Program-made: the position numbers and the translations under genes
In this document: positions 15,630 to 35,695 of the stretch, in pieces
Position numbering within the stretch: the stretch's first letter is position 1
How the letters are laid out: each line of letters opens with the position of its first letter
IMG/VR virus record: IMGVR_UViG_3300036861_000394
Coordinates: 1-54,490 of that record
DNA from: a virus
Taxonomy: Duplodnaviria; Caudoviricetes
DNA: 54,490 nt
Strand: one strand, 5' to 3'
The notes under the pieces: model-generated
What the model was told of the DNA's origin: nothing
The model's input: only the letters and a program-made list of their open reading frames with translations
Databases searched by the model: none

Positions 15630-16103
15630 GTGCCGATGGTCAGAAGAAATTGCTTAATGTGTGGAAAGCCCTTTGAGCGGGCGGTCTGGCCCAGCGAATA
15701 TCGGCACAAGAAGAACCCCGGCCGTTATTGCTCCAGGTCTTGTGCTGCTAAGCAAAAGCGGGGCGGCAAGTATCCGGGCAGAGAAATGATGCAGGCCGCC
15801 GGGCACCCGCTTGGGGGCGAAAGGAATGGCGTAATCTTCGTCTATCGAAAGATACTCTACGACGCGATAGGCCCTGGAAAGCATCCATGCTGCTGGTGCG
15901 GAGAATTGGTGAAATGGACTACGGGCGGCAAGGGAAGGGGCTGTCACGAGGGAGCGTTAGTGGTAGACCATCTCGACGGCGACCGCTACAACAATGCCCT
16001 AAATAATCTCGTCCCGGCTTGTAGTAGCTGCAACACGGCACGCGCCCTGATTCGTCGGTGGACTGAGCGAACAGGTCGCAGTGTCACCGAGCTTCTGTCC
16101 TAG
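15630..16103 (+). CDS. HNH endonuclease with N-terminal Zn-binding domain
   Basis: C..CGKPF...YCSRSC; C.WCG; VDHLDGDR.NN..NNL..AC..CN. Confidence 0.85.
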   Translation: MPMVRRNCLMCGKPFERAVWPSEYRHKKNPGRYCSRSCAAKQKRGGKYPGREMMQAAGHPLGGERNGVIFVYRKILYDAIGPGKHPCCWCGELVKWTTGGKGRGCHEGALVVDHLDGDRYNNALNNLVPACSSCNTARALIRRWTERTGRSVTELLS

Positions 16104-30996: not shown

Positions 30997-31274
30997 GCTG
31001 CGCTCCACCTCCAGCCCATTTCCCACAGGCCGAGTTCGATCCCATGTACGAGCCGTTCTTCAATGGCGCTGCCTGCCCAATCCGGGTGTTGGGTCTGAAT
31101 CAGTCGGTGGAGGACTTCGTGAAGCAGGACGCGTTCGTCGTACTCGCGCAATGCGATTTCCCGACAACCGGGAGCATTCCGAACGATGCCGCGAGTTTTA
31201 AGCGTGGGATCGTGCCGGACCCAACAGTCGATTCCTTCGACCTCAATGCGGAAGGGCATCTCAGGTTCGCTCAC
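30993..31274 (-). CDS. Small HExxH protein
   Basis: VLLHEVLH...EE. Confidence 0.65.
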   Translation of the reverse strand: MSEPEMPFRIEVEGIDCWVRHDPTLKTRGIVRNAPGCREIALREYDERVLLHEVLHRLIQTQHPDWAGSAIEERLVHGIELGLWEMGWRWSAA

Positions 31275-32125
31275 GCTGCGCTCCGGGTTTGGGCTAGGTG
31301 CTGCATCAGCTGGTGGCCTATGAGCTCGGTGTAGGCTGGCGGGATTGCTTGCGACAGTTCGCGCCAGTTGGCCCAGGGCATCTCGAACGCTTCGCGTGCC
31401 ATCGCTAGACCTTCTGCTGCGCGAAACTGCCCATTCTCTACCGAGGTGGCACGCCTCCGGTCGCGTGCGTGGTCGCCGTAGATGCCGAGCGTAGGGCGAC
31501 CACTGTGAGCGCAGGGAGGAACGAGCAGTGGCCAGTTCGTCTCGAAGAGACGGTGGCGGCGGATCTCGTGCGTTGCCGTGCCGAGCACAGTTGACGAGCC
31601 GCAGATTTGTACCGGGCTCACCATCGGAGCTCCAGGAACGTTTTCGATGACGTATGGGAGGCTGAGCTCAATCAGTAGCTCCCGCGTCGGTGTCAGAAGA
31701 TCCTCGTGCTCGCCAGCGTTCCACATTGTCTTGAGATCGGTGAAGGCCTGGCAGGGTGGCGAGGCATGAATTGCAGCGAAGTCCTTGACTTCCAGAGCCG
31801 GCTTTGTAGAGTCGAAAGCGACACCGACCAAAGGAGCGGCATGCCTCGCACGATCCTCATCCACCTGAACATCGAAGCCCCGGATACCGACAGCCGCACC
31901 GCCGACGAGATCGCCGACGCGATCCTCGCCAAACTCAGCAGAGAAGAACTTGCCATCGTCGCTCCACTGGCTGAGGAGGTCTAGCGCGTCAGCCTGTACG
32001 AACTCGAACGGATACCTCGGCTGCGGCTTGATGTCCACGCCCACGACCTCGAAGCCCGCGCGGCTGTAGCCCATCGCTGCGCCGCCAGCTCCGCAAAAGA
32101 GATCGAGGAGGCGAGGTTTACTCAC
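31271..32125 (-). CDS. DNA cytosine-C5 methyltransferase-like protein with an insertion of about 60 aa
   Basis: LLDLFCGAGG, VDI, SPPCQ, IENV, RRHRLFE, QAIPPAYT. Confidence 0.85.
   Translation of the reverse strand: MSKPRLLDLFCGAGGAAMGYSRAGFEVVGVDIKPQPRYPFEFVQADALDLLSQWSDDGKFFSAEFGEDRVGDLVGGAAVGIRGFDVQVDEDRARHAAPLVGVAFDSTKPALEVKDFAAIHASPPCQAFTDLKTMWNAGEHEDLLTPTRELLIELSLPYVIENVPGAPMVSPVQICGSSTVLGTATHEIRRHRLFETNWPLLVPPCAHSGRPTLGIYGDHARDRRRATSVENGQFRAAEGLAMAREAFEMPWANWRELSQAIPPAYTELIGHQLMQHLAQTRSAA
31785..31812 (+). promoter_or_regulatory. Antisense promoter inside the C5 methyltransferase
   Basis: TTGACT-16 nt-TAGAGT. Confidence 0.55.
31841..31984 (+). CDS. Nested antisense gene (47 aa)
   Basis: SD AAAGGAG, ATG, MPRTILIHLNIEAPDTDSRTADEIADAILAKLSREELAIVAPLAEEV; coincides with the MTase insertion. 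Confidence 0.7.
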   Translation: MPRTILIHLNIEAPDTDSRTADEIADAILAKLSREELAIVAPLAEEV

Positions 32126-32643
32126 GGCTTGCACTCCCATTGCCCCCATCTAGGCTTATGAGCTCGGACTGCGCGCGCCACCGTATACGCCGCGGTAAAC
32201 ACGTTCGCGTACGGATCGAAGACGCTAAAGCCCGCTCGCCCGAACGGCCCGTGCTCAAACATCGGACCTTCCTGCATCACGCCCCGGTAACGACCGTTCC
32301 GGGCTAGCGGGTAGAGGTGCGACTCGCACGAGCCGACGCTGACGAGCTCAGCCCGCGGCACGCCCCAGATCGTCGAGGCGAGGGAGATCGCGTGGAGGAC
32401 ACTCGGACGCCAGTAGCGGCGAGCCTCGCGCTGCAGCCTCCGCACTCGCCGCCCATTGATCCTCGCCGAGCGCCGCGCCTTCCGAAGCTTCACCCGCAGG
32501 ACGCGATTCTCCCGCTCGAGCGAAGGCTCCCGCTGTGCCCTGACCGCGTGGATGATCCGGTCGAAGCCGATCGGCGGGCCTCCCTTGGCGCTGGAGACGA
32601 AAAGGAAGAGAGCGGTCAGGCAGGAGGCTAGGGCGAGCTTCAT
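32122..32643 (-). CDS. Secreted lytic-transglycosylase-like (SLT/Rpf-like) protein
   Basis: Signal peptide, coiled coil, CES...A.NG.Y.G..Q, DPYAN...A, W..WEC. Confidence 0.75.
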   Translation of the reverse strand: MKLALASCLTALFLFVSSAKGGPPIGFDRIIHAVRAQREPSLERENRVLRVKLRKARRSARINGRRVRRLQREARRYWRPSVLHAISLASTIWGVPRAELVSVGSCESHLYPLARNGRYRGVMQEGPMFEHGPFGRAGFSVFDPYANVFTAAYTVARAVRAHKPRWGQWECKP

Positions 32644-32943
32644 GGCTGATGCCGTATTCGGTCCCATGCTTTTTCAAGGGGTGATAGCTGGCACTCGCAG
32701 GCTGCGGTTGTACGCACGATTCTCGGCTCACCTTCGGGATGGAGAATCCAGCCAGTGGGAGCGAGGTCCGGCCTACGCTCGTCGGCGATTAGCGAGAAGC
32801 ACAGCGGACAAAGGAAGGCCCACTCATCGACGCCACCTTGCCGAACTACCGCATTCCAGACATCGTGCGGCGCAAACCAGACAGGATAGTCGCGATCGCA
32901 GAGATCACAGAGAAGCTCGCGGTGTTCCCGCCCCTCTGCCATC
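32640..32943 (-). CDS. Zn-binding hypothetical protein
   Basis: CDLC...W..P..VWN.V...LCPLCF. Confidence 0.55.
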
Positions 32944-32956
32944 GCATCCCCTGGGG

Positions 32957-34594
32957 TCACGCCGACCCCGCTTCCGCGAGTACCGAAAGCTGCTGGGTCC
33001 GCCGCGCGGCCAGCTCGCAGTACACCTCGCTCAACTCGATCAGGATCGAGCGGCGTCCGTGCTTGCGGGCGACGAGGCCGGTTGTGCCTGAGCCGGCAAA
33101 GCAATCCAGGACCGTCCCCGCAGTTCGAGAGGCGCTACAGCAGACGCTTACCGGATCGCGAACGTCTTGCCGCAGTGCGGGCAGGCCACCGTTCCTCGGT
33201 GCGGTTCCCGCGCCATGATCTCCAAGTTCTCCGGGCGGTTGTCCGTCTTGATCGCGTTCCGGTGATGCACCGTCTCCCCTCGTTCGAGTGATCGGCCCAG
33301 TACTTGCTCCATCACCACGCGATGCTCCAATAGGTACTTCCGTTGCTCGCGGCTGTAGATCCTGACGTACCCGTTCACATCGATGACTTTGCCGCCCTTC
33401 CAGTTCGCCGCTCGACGCTCCGGTGGGAACGGCCTGCGGTTCGCCCCCGTCTTCGTCGCCCACTCCCCGGCACACTTCAGCGAGCAGCACTTGCTTCGCA
33501 TCCTCTGTGTGGGCTGCCCGCAGTTGAGACACGCAGGCCGCGTCTTCACCCGTAATCGATTCTTCGCCGTCGTGCTGCAACTCCGGCTGCAATACATCGG
33601 CCCGCGACCCTCGTAGTACTTCCCGCACTCGTCGCACTCCCTCTTGTGCGGGCGGTCGCTCGGCCAGTTTCGAGTGCTGCTCATCTACGAATGGAGCATA
33701 ACAGGCGGAGCAGACATACTCAGGGCATCCGGCGAGAATGCAGCGGCGGACGAGCTCCTGCGGGTAGGTGGCGAAGTGCGCCTCGGGATAGGGCTCGGTG
33801 GCGATCTCCCAGACGGAGCGGATGTTGCGGCCCGAGCCTGGCGTGAATCGCTCGTCAGTTCCATGCCCTCCGTCGATAGCCGAGCTCCGAGCCCCGCCCT
33901 GTCGTCCTGCGAAGCCGTTACCACTCGGTAGTCCAGCGTCCTTTTCGCGGACAGCCTCGGCATCCCAGAAGTACCGAGCCGACTTCGAGAGCAGGAAGAT
34001 CCGCGAGTGCGAAGTCGTTGGCCGATCTCTCGTCGACTCTGGCATCGGATTCGACTTGTGCCAGATGATCTCGCTCCTGAGATACCAGCCGTCTGCGCGG
34101 AGGGCGAAGGCTAGGAGCCAGGGTGCGCCGATGAGGTCCTTTTGCTTCAGCCCTGCTACGGCTGTATTCGCCGCCCGCCCTCCTCGATCGCGCCACGCCG
34201 CAAGCCCTCGCGCATGTTCGTATCGCTCGTCATCCTCATATCGAGCCTGTCGGCGCTGGTCGTGCGCGCTGGACTGATCCTCGATCTGCTTCCCACCAGC
34301 CTGCGCGTAACTGTCCCCGATTTCGATCCAGCAGGTGCCATCGGCGCGCAAGATCCTTCGCACCTCCTGGAAGACCTCAACGAGCTTGGCGACCCATTCC
34401 TCAGGGGTGGGCTCGAGACCTAGTTCAAGCGACTTGTCCTCATGCCCGTCAGGCAGATACGAACGAAGCCCGTAGAACGGCGGCGAGGTCACGCAGCAGT
34501 GAACCGACTCGCTCGGGAGCTCGCGAAGGACGGTGAGCGCGTCGCCCTGATAGAGGGTGAGGTCGGCATCCTCAAGGTAGGACTTGGGGGTCAT
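32957..34594 (-). CDS. DNA N4/N6 methyltransferase (beta class) with an insertion of about 180 aa
   Basis: VTSPPF, IIWHK.NPMPES..DR, HFA.YP..L...CI.AG, VLDCFAGSGTT, IELS..Y. Confidence 0.9.
   Translation of the reverse strand: MTPKSYLEDADLTLYQGDALTVLRELPSESVHCCVTSPPFYGLRSYLPDGHEDKSLELGLEPTPEEWVAKLVEVFQEVRRILRADGTCWIEIGDSYAQAGGKQIEDQSSAHDQRRQARYEDDERYEHARGLAAWRDRGGRAANTAVAGLKQKDLIGAPWLLAFALRADGWYLRSEIIWHKSNPMPESTRDRPTTSHSRIFLLSKSARYFWDAEAVREKDAGLPSGNGFAGRQGGARSSAIDGGHGTDERFTPGSGRNIRSVWEIATEPYPEAHFATYPQELVRRCILAGCPEYVCSACYAPFVDEQHSKLAERPPAQEGVRRVREVLRGSRADVLQPELQHDGEESITGEDAACVSQLRAAHTEDAKQVLLAEVCRGVGDEDGGEPQAVPTGASSGELEGRQSHRCERVRQDLQPRATEVPIGASRGDGASTGPITRTRGDGASPERDQDGQPPGELGDHGAGTAPRNGGLPALRQDVRDPVSVCCSASRTAGTVLDCFAGSGTTGLVARKHGRRSILIELSEVYCELAARRTQQLSVLAEAGSA
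33148..33684 (-). CDS. HNH endonuclease nested in the +1 frame of the methyltransferase
   Basis: Zn motifs, NWKGG, GYVRI, EHRVVME..LGR.L...E.VHH.N..K.DNR.ENL. Confidence 0.9.
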   Translation of the reverse strand: MSSTRNWPSDRPHKRECDECGKYYEGRGPMYCSRSCSTTAKNRLRVKTRPACLNCGQPTQRMRSKCCSLKCAGEWATKTGANRRPFPPERRAANWKGGKVIDVNGYVRIYSREQRKYLLEHRVVMEQVLGRSLERGETVHHRNAIKTDNRPENLEIMAREPHRGTVACPHCGKTFAIR

Positions 34595-34812
34595 ACTGCC
34601 TCCAGATTGGCCTCGCGCTCAATACGCCTGCGGTCCGCCCAGTACGCCTCTTTGCGGCCTCGATCTTTAACCTCATAAACGACTTCTTCCTTCTCAAACC
34701 AAAGCTTTGCGTGGGCATACGAGCAGAAGTGCCACTGGTCATTGTTGACCGCAATCTTGGAGTGATAGCCACAGTCCTTCTTGCACCAGTCACAATGTTT
34801 ATGAATGCTCAT
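34591..34812 (-). CDS. Small Zn-binding protein
   Basis: CDWC...HFCS..H. Confidence 0.6.
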   Translation of the reverse strand: MSIHKHCDWCKKDCGYHSKIAVNNDQWHFCSYAHAKLWFEKEEVVYEVKDRGRKEAYWADRRRIEREANLEAV

Positions 34813-35036
34813 GCCAAATCTCCCTTTGCCATCCCATGCGGCACAAGCCGATCGAACCGATCCTCGTAGTCACGCAATACGGCTGCAAGCGCATCATCGA
34901 GCCCCCGGTAGGTGCCGAGATCGAATCCGAAGGCCATCGCCTGATATCGCGCAGGCTCGTTCCTGGTGATGAGATAGTGCCTGCCGCCCCAGGAATATGT
35001 CTGCGGTGTCGGCTTTCGTTGGCGGTGGAACTTCAT
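34809..35036 (-). CDS. Hypothetical protein
   Basis: Starts MKFHRQRK. Confidence 0.55.
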   Translation of the reverse strand: MKFHRQRKPTPQTYSWGGRHYLITRNEPARYQAMAFGFDLGTYRGLDDALAAVLRDYEDRFDRLVPHGMAKGDLA

Positions 35037-35046
35037 TTCCCGGCCA

Positions 35047-35235
35047 TCACTGGAGCCATCCCGGAAGCCGCCCGCGCCGTCGGGCAAAGAGACGGCAGCC
35101 CAGCTTTGTATTGAAGGTACGAAAGACGAGATATTTGCCCGCGTTGTAGTTCACGCTGTATCGCGGGAAAGGCCGCGGGCCGTGCCAACGCTCGAATATG
35201 AGATAGGTCGTCTTTCGCTGACGACGGAATTTCAT
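35047..35235 (-). CDS. Hypothetical protein
   Basis: Starts MKFRRQRK. Confidence 0.5.
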   Translation of the reverse strand: MKFRRQRKTTYLIFERWHGPRPFPRYSVNYNAGKYLVFRTFNTKLGCRLFARRRGRLPGWLQ

Positions 35236-35486
35236 GCCGACCTCTCGCAGTCGCTCTCGGAGCGGGCCGAGGCGCTCGACGAGCGGGGGGCCGACCTATA
35301 AAAGTCTGCACCCAGCGGCCAGTCGCTATCTGTATGGCCTCCCCCTAGGCGGCGAAGCCTCCAGGGTACTACCACCGCTTGCTCCCGCTCGTCCAACGCC
35401 CGCTGAATCTCAGAAGCCTGGCCCAGCCCGTAGGCGATGTAGAGGAAGCCAAAGGCAATCAGAACGTAGGCGAGGGTGGCGATCAT
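35232..35486 (-). CDS. Small membrane protein
   Basis: N-terminal TM segment MIATLAYVLIAFGFLYIAYGLG. Confidence 0.55.
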   Translation of the reverse strand: MIATLAYVLIAFGFLYIAYGLGQASEIQRALDEREQAVVVPWRLRRLGGGHTDSDWPLGADFYRSAPRSSSASARSESDCERSA

Positions 35487-35695
35487 GCGATTGACCATCG
35501 CGCTTCGTCCGCTAGCTCAAGCGTCTTAACGTCTTCGTCTGTGAGCTCAAACCCCCAAATAGCCAAGCCCGGCGCGTGCTTCGTCCAGCCATCTACCGGA
35601 TGCTTCGTAAGAATGTCTCCTGGAAGGAGCGGATAGTTCGTATGGATGGGGTGCTTACCGGCGAGCTCCACCGTTACGCGGTATTGGTGCTTCAT
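35483..35695 (-). CDS. Hypothetical protein
   Basis: First ORF after attP; coupled to the next gene. Confidence 0.55.
   Translation of the reverse strand: MKHQYRVTVELAGKHPIHTNYPLLPGDILTKHPVDGWTKHAPGLAIWGFELTDEDVKTLELADEARWSIA

Follow-up and report, generated by a model that had tools for sequence, protein, structure and literature searches.

How can a complete nuclease gene lie inside a methyltransferase gene, in another reading frame, when neither an intron nor an intein separates the two? The question is raised by IMG/VR record IMGVR_UViG_3300036861_000394, a complete viral record of 54,490 bp with terminal repeats (hereafter the window, meaning this whole stretch of DNA). The window carries terminase, portal, protease, tape measure and integrase genes, the gene content of a temperate tailed phage. 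On its minus strand, an open reading frame (ORF) for a 545-aa DNA methylase contains, in a different frame, an ORF for a 178-aa HNH endonuclease. We propose that the nuclease gene is probably part of a mobile 'hidden HNH' homing-endonuclease cassette, and that the methylase is translated straight through this cassette with no splicing. The earlier note on this DNA, which had described both ORFs and the motifs SPPF, FAGSGTT, VCSAC and CC, was correct in all coordinates, frames and motifs when compared with the ORF list, Pfam and PHROGs.

The methylase ORF matched Pfam family PF01555 (N6_N4_Mtase, 3.1e-35) in two stretches, aa 31-291 and a C-terminal piece, which lie in one open frame; it also matched phrog_67 (9e-63). 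Motif IV, (S/D)PP(Y/F), precedes motif I, FxGxG, which together with the PF01555 profile match is the beta-class order. All of the 20 invariant columns in an alignment of 124 methylase sequences were kept in the window. In an AlphaFold model built from this 124-row alignment, the predicted local distance difference test score (pLDDT) of the core exceeded 90 on both sides of the inserted stretch. Foldseek matched the model to M.BceJIV (1e-11, template-modelling score by target 0.79), followed by PvuII, RsrI, CcrM and MboIIA, and these solved beta-class methyltransferases matched it across the insert.

The extent of the insert was assessed from the number of residues between two conserved anchors, L281 and G506, in the 124 aligned homologs. 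This interval spanned 27 residues in 25 rows, 66-184 in 91 and 226-294 in 8; the 91 rows of intermediate length have a CxxC...C loop of their own. The nearest relative in the methylase core, P0005 (71% identity over 304 columns), has the 27-residue form and lacks the cassette. Its sequence in the anchor interval is LVRRCILAGSPLDGTILDPFGGSGTTA, the short form reading ...ILAGSPLDGTILDPF..., where the window reads ...ILAGCPE[Y VCSAC ... VCCSASRTA]GTVLDCF... (the insert in brackets). As the window has 226 residues against 27 in P0005, its methylase is a short-form enzyme with 199 additional codons. These lie a few codons upstream of motif I, which binds S-adenosylmethionine (SAM), without flanking duplication. 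The HNH ORF occupies 537 of the ~600 nt inserted, leaving 34 nt on the 5' side and 29 nt on the 3' side. In the methylase frame, the sequences RRVREVLRG and ERDQDGQP are conserved in the insert and are the shifted reading of the HNH motifs CDECGKYYEGRG and HHRN..KTDNRPENLE. A search with the insert in this frame against 5.8 billion proteins returned a single match, P0271 (554 aa, PF01555, 44% identity), which is unusable as a census. The insert had been described as disordered-looking, in agreement with a pLDDT of 37-67 over aa 301-480, which we read as unstructured. A terminator-like hairpin was found at the 3' boundary of the cassette, ~30 nt past the HNH stop, at a number (1 found) matching that expected by chance (1.1). 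Other inserts occur among the methylase homologs: P0002, P0022 and P0089 have a second in-frame insert of ~165-170 aa after a ...ALQA motif, with a LAGLIDADG-like sequence (WLAATLDAEGTICGF) and no visible intein ends, which resembles the 'lone LAGLIDADG' reported for ShiLan-type methylases. Long inserts were seen at three further sites in other homologs.

Relative to the methylase, the nuclease ORF is in the +1 frame, since 34594-33684 = 910 = 1 mod 3. Its start ATG at 33684 abuts a TAG in its own frame, and its TAA stop lies at 33148-33150. The product matched PF13392 (HNH_3) at 7.8e-11 with 41.9 bits, against a cut-off of 24.8, and phrog_20891 at 9e-26. Full-length homologs were identified, with 58% (P0123) and 54% (P0124) identity, each over 100% of the query. 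The HNH of P0121 was closer, at 85% identity. In a nine-sequence alignment, 12 of the 17 positions of the catalytic motif were invariant (V139, H140, H141, N143, D148, N149, R150, P151, E152, N153, L154 and E155); these include the catalytic His-His...Asn...Asn residues H140, H141, N149 and N153. The AlphaFold model of the nuclease, built from nine sequences, had a mean pLDDT of 78.6. Foldseek returned nothing at E<=0.001 for this model; the best relevant match was a weak one to I-HmuI (structure 1u3e; probability 0.99, E 0.15, 64 columns). A profile of the nuclease gave no match at E<=0.01 among the sequences of solved structures. The database record of the window nuclease is a 117-aa product; gene callers give such methylases as one long protein, and the nested nuclease is missed or truncated. 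A second HNH_3 match in the window, in a 163-codon open frame, fell below threshold (23.6 bits against the cut-off of 24.8).

Table 1. Features of the nested methylase-nuclease locus and of nearby or related sequences in the window.
Feature	Position in window	Strand	Basis or remark
Inserted cassette, ~199-200 codons, methylase aa 293-492 (+/- one codon)	33119..33718	-	Alignment against uninvaded homologs; pLDDT
HNH_3 endonuclease ORF, 178 aa, methylase +1 frame	33148..33684	-	Pfam, PHROGs, homologs, AlphaFold
HNH catalytic motif VHHRNAIKTDNRPENLE, HNH aa 139-155	33220..33270	-	Nine-sequence alignment
Host methylase ORF, beta-class N6A/N4C, 545 aa	32957..34594	-	Frame uninterrupted from start to stop, insert included; PF01555 and phrog_67
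Methylase N-terminal part, aa 1-292	33719..34594	-	Profile positions 1-180; ends ...ILAGCPE; pLDDT mostly >90
Motif IV SPPF, aa 37-40	34475..34486	-	In methylase N-terminal part
Methylase C-terminal part, aa 493-545	32957..33118	-	Profile positions 179-220, 8.2e-13; pLDDT 95-97
Motif I FAGSGTT, aa 499-505	33080..33100	-	In methylase C-terminal part
5' cysteine pair VCSAC, aa 294-298, methylase frame	33701..33715	-	Upstream of HNH start; pLDDT 93 (aa 291-300)
3' cysteine pair CC, aa 485-486, methylase frame	33137..33142	-	Just past HNH stop; pLDDT 77 (aa 481-490)
'Extended -10' string TGTTATGCT	33703..33695	-	10 nt before HNH ATG; promoter unsupported
Upstream ORF in HNH frame, 92 aa	33685..33963		Ends at the TAG abutting the HNH ATG
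Terminator-like hairpin	33120..33107	-	
Sub-threshold HNH_3 match	15951..16013	+	
C5 methyltransferase ORF, 292 aa	31271..32149	-	phrog_363, 1.5e-34
ORF of 47 aa (MPRTILIHLN...PLAEEV)	31841..31984	+	Antisense inside the C5 methyltransferase insert

The same layout recurs elsewhere. Among 160 fetched loci encoding HNH relatives (80 viral contigs and 80 metagenome contigs), the alternative frame across the nuclease gene showed a bimodal distribution of open lengths. In the window and in 15 of the 160 loci, a frame on the same strand was open for 422-1067 codons; in the other loci it was open for at most 349 codons, and mostly far fewer. The offset of the window (nuclease in the host +1 frame) was shared by L002 and its near-copy L082, L004, L097, L003, L095 and L084. 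The hosts in this group are PF01555 methylases, with the exception of L084, a PolX-like gene with a DNA-polymerase-beta thumb domain (PF14791). The opposite offset was found in L017, L030, L101 and its near-copy L102, L044, L066, L067 and L060; Mycobacterium phages Mantra and Bipolar and a Cylindrospermopsis phage belong to the same group. The earlier note had named frequent stops in the methylase frame of homologous inserts as a refutation. In all five loci with methylase parts on both sides of the HNH (L002, L082, L004, L097 and L030; tblastn), this frame was open. A cassette of the window type also occurs in an N-terminal methylase loop in L095, in L003, a methylase of another lineage, and in the PolX-like gene of L084. 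Its hosts are two methylase lineages and the PolX-like gene, with four different sites in all. In a tree of the methylase core from which the insert columns had been removed, the 8 insert-bearing rows implied 7 gains or losses, and well-supported branches forced at least 4. Such a patchy spread suggests that the cassette is likely to have moved by homing.

The association with methylases might instead reflect a domesticated nuclease-methylase unit: the methylase might, for example, shield the phage DNA from the nuclease, or both proteins might serve in defence or counter-defence, with the two genes kept inseparable by overprinting. HNH relatives do often lie beside or inside methylase genes: methylase segments were found by tblastn in 28 of the 160 loci with the two parts of the window methylase as queries, and in more with ShiLan-type and L004-type queries. 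Related nuclease genes directly upstream of methylases are also described in the available text of a published survey (PMC11855218, section 3.6). However, the same cassette type is present in the PolX-like gene of L084, relatives of the nuclease lie antisense inside clamp-loader-like (L131) and SMC-like (L073) ORFs, and the distribution of the cassette on the methylase tree is patchy, with P0005, the nearest relative, lacking it. Since homing endonucleases usually target conserved genes, no cooperation is needed to explain the association. A domesticated unit is therefore improbable, and nothing specific speaks for the inseparable nuclease/methylase unit that had been put forward as one reading of the locus, given that a cassette of this type is also found in L084.

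Free-standing phage homing endonucleases and intron-encoded HNH enzymes such as I-HmuI belong to the same superfamily as the window nuclease and target conserved genes. To our knowledge, they lie between genes or in self-splicing introns, and the host gene is never translated through them, unlike the window methylase gene, which would be. An insert at a conserved site of a conserved gene, with cysteines at both ends, is nevertheless reminiscent of introns and inteins, and it might be removed by an unrecognised self-splicing RNA or by non-canonical protein splicing. A search of positions 31000-35500 against Rfam at E<=1 gave no intron family, one chance match to a small nucleolar RNA being the only result, and a group I or group II catalytic RNA core does not fit because only ~60 nt of the insert lie outside the HNH ORF. 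No Hint or intein domain was found in the methylase ORF with Pfam at E<=0.01, the insert ends in ...SASRTA before GT, without His-Asn, and its low pLDDT also argues against a splicing domain. Selection against stops in the host frame, described below, would be pointless for an intron. The authors of PMC11855218, in the text available, likewise report neither signature for their elements. The insert thus has the defining features of neither an intron nor an intein, as the earlier note had stated, and its removal by splicing is very unlikely.

Is the methylase frame open across the nuclease gene by chance? A disrupted and decaying methylase could retain an open frame in GC-rich DNA, and the GC content here is 63%. 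Over the 178 HNH codons there were no stops in the methylase frame, as had been noted before, and five in the other alternative frame. When synonymous codons were shuffled inside the window HNH gene, the mean was 3.5 stops (P=0.011), and resampling of codons by the methylase's own usage gave a mean of 6.6 (P=0.0002). In this frame offset, a host-frame stop arises when an HNH codon ending in T is followed by a codon starting with AA, AG or GA. T-ending codons were found in none of 50 such positions in the window, as compared with 12 of 127 elsewhere (P=0.016). When the seven distinct loci with the same offset (the window, L002, L004, L097, L003, L095 and L084) were pooled, T-ending codons were absent from all 351 stop-prone contexts and present in 139 of 894 others (P 3.7e-22), while in free-standing relatives they occupied 1120 of 4455 stop-prone contexts (25%). 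Across the whole HNH ORF, the host frame of each of the seven loci was stop-free, against 5-11 stops in the other alternative frame. As controls, 145 HNH relatives that are not nested on the same strand averaged 1.9-11.8 stops per 100 codons in the corresponding frame, varying with GC content. In the control group with a GC content of 0.57-0.80, 5 of 26 lacked a stop in that frame, over only 81-128 codons. ShiLan-type loci of the opposite offset with a GC content of only 0.36-0.38 also keep the frame open. We conclude that the open methylase frame exceeds the effect of high GC content and that synonymous codon choice in the nuclease gene keeps it stop-free. Taken with the intact invariant columns and the confidently folded core of the methylase, and notwithstanding the motif I substitution considered below, this leaves very little room for a decaying gene that is open by accident.

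The cassette is flanked by cysteine pairs in the host frame. A CxxC lies 9-23 residues before the HNH start in all seven same-offset loci, and a CxxC or CC lies within 4 residues after the HNH stop in five of them, that of L004 and L003 being just before the stop. Such pairs flanked none of the 10 loci of the opposite, ShiLan-type offset. As they lie mostly outside the HNH ORF, they are not explained by the nuclease. No such pairs were present in the uninvaded short-form relatives of the window; L004 and L097 retain the host's own CxxC...C loop and have a second pair that arrives with the cassette; and other members of the methylase lineage of L003 have no cysteine at that place. These comparisons, with those for L095 and L084, indicate that the cysteine pairs come with the cassette. 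They probably bind metal and staple the base of the loop. A cysteine clasp is not mentioned in the available text of PMC11855218 or of an intein preprint (10.1101/2025.01.02.630785).

These results are consistent with the following sequence of events. A cassette of ~600 bp would have inserted in frame into a short-loop beta-class methyltransferase gene, upstream of motif I. One frame of the cassette would encode a complete HNH_3 endonuclease with zinc-finger modules, in which synonymous choice would keep the methylase frame free of stops. The ribosome would read through, giving a 545-aa and presumably active enzyme in which two conserved halves are joined by an unstructured loop of ~200 aa, with no need for RNA or protein splicing. 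The cassette's own cysteine pairs, CxxC at its start and CC or CxxC at its end, would probably bind metal and pin the base of this loop. The nuclease would be made separately from an internal start and would presumably cut uninvaded methylase alleles near the sequence encoding motif I, after which repair would copy the cassette in (homing). Tolerance of the nuclease gene as a read-through loop, which the earlier note had inferred, is the reading best supported by the stop depletion, the lack of a splicing signature, the AlphaFold model and the comparison with uninvaded relatives. It is also possible, at somewhat less than even odds, that the cassette is a self-closing module that can be carried from protein to protein: its host frame would encode a metal-stapled loop that draws the two ends together, letting it settle in surface loops of unrelated proteins with no splicing, and its other frame would encode the nuclease by which it spreads.

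Several observations weigh against a translated, mobile cassette. For the window alone, the conservative versions of the stop-depletion test (P 0.011 and 0.016) are only moderately strong. The nested loci were found by their open frame, and database proteins are open by definition; broken cases are perhaps under-counted. In motif I, a Cys replaces the nearly invariant Pro before the Phe (VLDCF), which could reduce methylase activity. The stretch is held by one sequencing run, a DNA run from a soil metagenome, and a search for RNA runs containing it listed none. Logan contigs of the DNA run matched the window exactly at 32933-33660 and 33803-34750; as the exact contigs skip 33661-33802, the 5' junction of the insert (~33718) is not bridged independently. 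Divergent contigs of other methylases were seen around 33718-33830 in the same run. The contigs over the window contained no joints and no insert-free form, and they are uninformative on splicing or empty alleles. Part of the cysteine signal could be host-derived in some lineages, because relatives with long loops have a zinc-ribbon-like CxxC...C loop of their own at the same position. In an approximately unbiased (AU) test, placing the insert-bearing methylases in a single clade (seven rows, L097 left out) was not rejected (p 0.065, log-likelihood difference 116.6), and vertical inheritance with losses may therefore account for them. The HNH tree (164 rows, 125 columns) was largely unresolved, with same-offset cassettes scattered in a polytomy, so that one origin of the cassette is indistinguishable from several.

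How the nuclease is made is a further difficulty. A consensus promoter scan of 32800-34900 gave no promoter-like sites, and no Shine-Dalgarno-like sequence was found in the 20 nt before the HNH ATG. An extended -10 element had been reported upstream of this ATG; the string TGTTATGCT is indeed there, and it is a string match only, because the scan gave no sites, so that the promoter itself did not stand. Production of the nuclease as a fusion to the N-terminal part of the methylase, by programmed +1 frameshifting instead of an own start, is barely conceivable: it would fit the missing Shine-Dalgarno-like sequence and the 92-codon open stretch in the HNH frame, which ends at the TAG abutting the ATG and leaves room for termination-reinitiation, but that TAG blocks any fusion started upstream, an in-frame ATG stands at the start of homology in all seven same-offset loci, and the 92-aa ORF had no Pfam or PHROG match.

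Elements of this kind have been described before. A ShiLan domain was reportedly identified in mycobacteriophage DNA methylases by Gosselin et al. in 2023 (PMC9957025). According to the available text of PMC11855218 (Arsenault, Gosselin and Gogarten, Genes 2025), the ShiLan domain is a 202-aa insert in mycobacteriophage methylases with a stop-free host frame and a 195-aa HNH gene in the third frame; it bears no mark of an intron or intein, is predicted to loop out and is disjunctly distributed. A second hidden HNH is described in Pacc40 gp60 (section 3.6), and further cases 'in other phages and prokaryotes', which may include relatives of the window variant, are referred to its supplements. 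The claim that the locus represents an undescribed system is thus incorrect, the same idea being already in print for the ShiLan domain and for the insert of Pacc40 gp60. The window element resembles the ShiLan domain, as far as the latter is set out in that text, in being an insert of ~200 codons in a PF01555 phage methylase, with a stop-free host frame, a zinc-finger HNH filling the insert in another frame, no intron or intein signature and a predicted loop-out; the published cases also lack a recognisable ribosome-binding site. The hidden HNH of Mantra was 37% identical to that of the window over residues 31-157.

The two differ in several respects. The host frame of Mantra gp64 and Bipolar gp76 is HNH+1 (the nuclease being in the 'third frame'), and the ShiLan insert lies mid-gene between duplicated EPxxxARKP motifs, in another methylase lineage and without flanking cysteine pairs. 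The duplication is pointed out in PMC11855218 as well. In the window, the nuclease is in the host +1 frame and the insert is placed a few codons before motif I, with no duplication and with CxxC...CC flanks. The term 'cxxc', and 'zinc' or 'cysteine' used of the host frame, do not occur in the available text of PMC11855218. By site, offset and lineage, therefore, the window element is not a ShiLan domain in the strict sense, nor is it the Pacc40 element. Pacc40 gp60 (L173), as presented there, also has an out-of-frame HNH-like ORF in an insert through which a methylase-containing protein is read, which is evidence of several sites and lineages. Its ORF of 159 codons is in the +2 frame, in the helicase part of a 1341-aa protein, and its nuclease gave no tblastn match to that of the window at E<=0.01. 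By eye, cysteine clusters flank it in the host frame (CRCLC upstream and QCPC downstream).

Out-of-frame or antisense homing endonucleases have also been described in inteins, in the cyanobacterial dnaX intein (10.64898/2026.09.14.751524) and in an actinophage survey (10.1101/2025.01.02.630785). In these cases, to judge from the available parts of both reports, a nuclease gene likewise overlaps a host-frame insert whose frame has to be kept open, whereas theirs is a working self-splicing intein and the window insert has no splicing domain. The window insert is absent from close relatives, its host frame is stop-free, a complete HNH gene fills it, and it carries no intron or intein signature. 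We conclude that it belongs to the 'hidden HNH' kind published in 2025 and is distinct by its methylase lineage, insertion site, frame offset and host-frame cysteine pairs.

Other arrangements were seen among the relatives. L030, L017 and L101 have another long insert in the host frame, downstream of the first insert and between duplicated ...ARFFY.AK... motifs, and that of L017 holds a second partial HNH zinc-finger match. The 1067-codon methylase ORF of L003 (504-3704), with its cysteine-flanked cassette, has by eye an intein-like insert (CLDD...FPTGNS) near the N-terminus. In L002 and L082 (~1975-2280), the first ~40 methylase residues are in frame 1 and the rest in frame 3, which could be a frameshift, an assembly error or an insert. 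HNH relatives lie antisense in PF01555 methylase ORFs of 527-767 codons in L022, L106 and L108 (GC content of L108, 0.34), and these ORFs are open across them. Antisense HNH relatives were also found inside the long ORFs of L131 (clamp-loader-like, PF13177), L073 (SMC-like), L019, L021, L024, L025, L026 and L033. By eye, these host ORFs resemble mini-inteins, with a Cys after the P-loop GPxG and ...HN before GKT. The host ORFs of the L021 group had no Pfam match.

Adjacent to the methylase in the window is a C5 methyltransferase ORF with an insert of ~65 aa. The earlier note had taken a gene nested in this second methyltransferase as reinforcement, and this was borne out in part: a conserved ORF of 47 aa lies antisense inside the insert. 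It matches neither Pfam nor PHROGs and belongs to a family of conserved 47-60-aa proteins (30 matches at E<=1e-3 among 1.84 billion representatives). The adenine-thymine (AT) skew changes sign at this ORF, and in two of the four loci fetched (the near-identical viral L169 and L170) the small gene is again antisense within a long ORF. With the C5 methyltransferase insert, the phage has two read-through inserts that contain a nested gene.

With the window, an independent lineage from an uncultivated soil phage joins a class of element that has been in print since 2023-2025 from only a few mycobacteriophages. It brings statistical evidence that selection on synonymous sites of the nuclease keeps the host frame open, which is lacking in the available parts of the published work. 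The cysteine clasp, if real, would explain how an insert of 200 residues can be tolerated a few residues from the SAM-binding motif, and why the same type of cassette can colonise different proteins. Nested pairs of this kind are a natural overlapping-gene design that couples the fates of two genes. Were the portable stapled module to prove true, it would be a third general solution to the homing-endonuclease problem besides introns and inteins, one in which the host-frame product is itself under selection.

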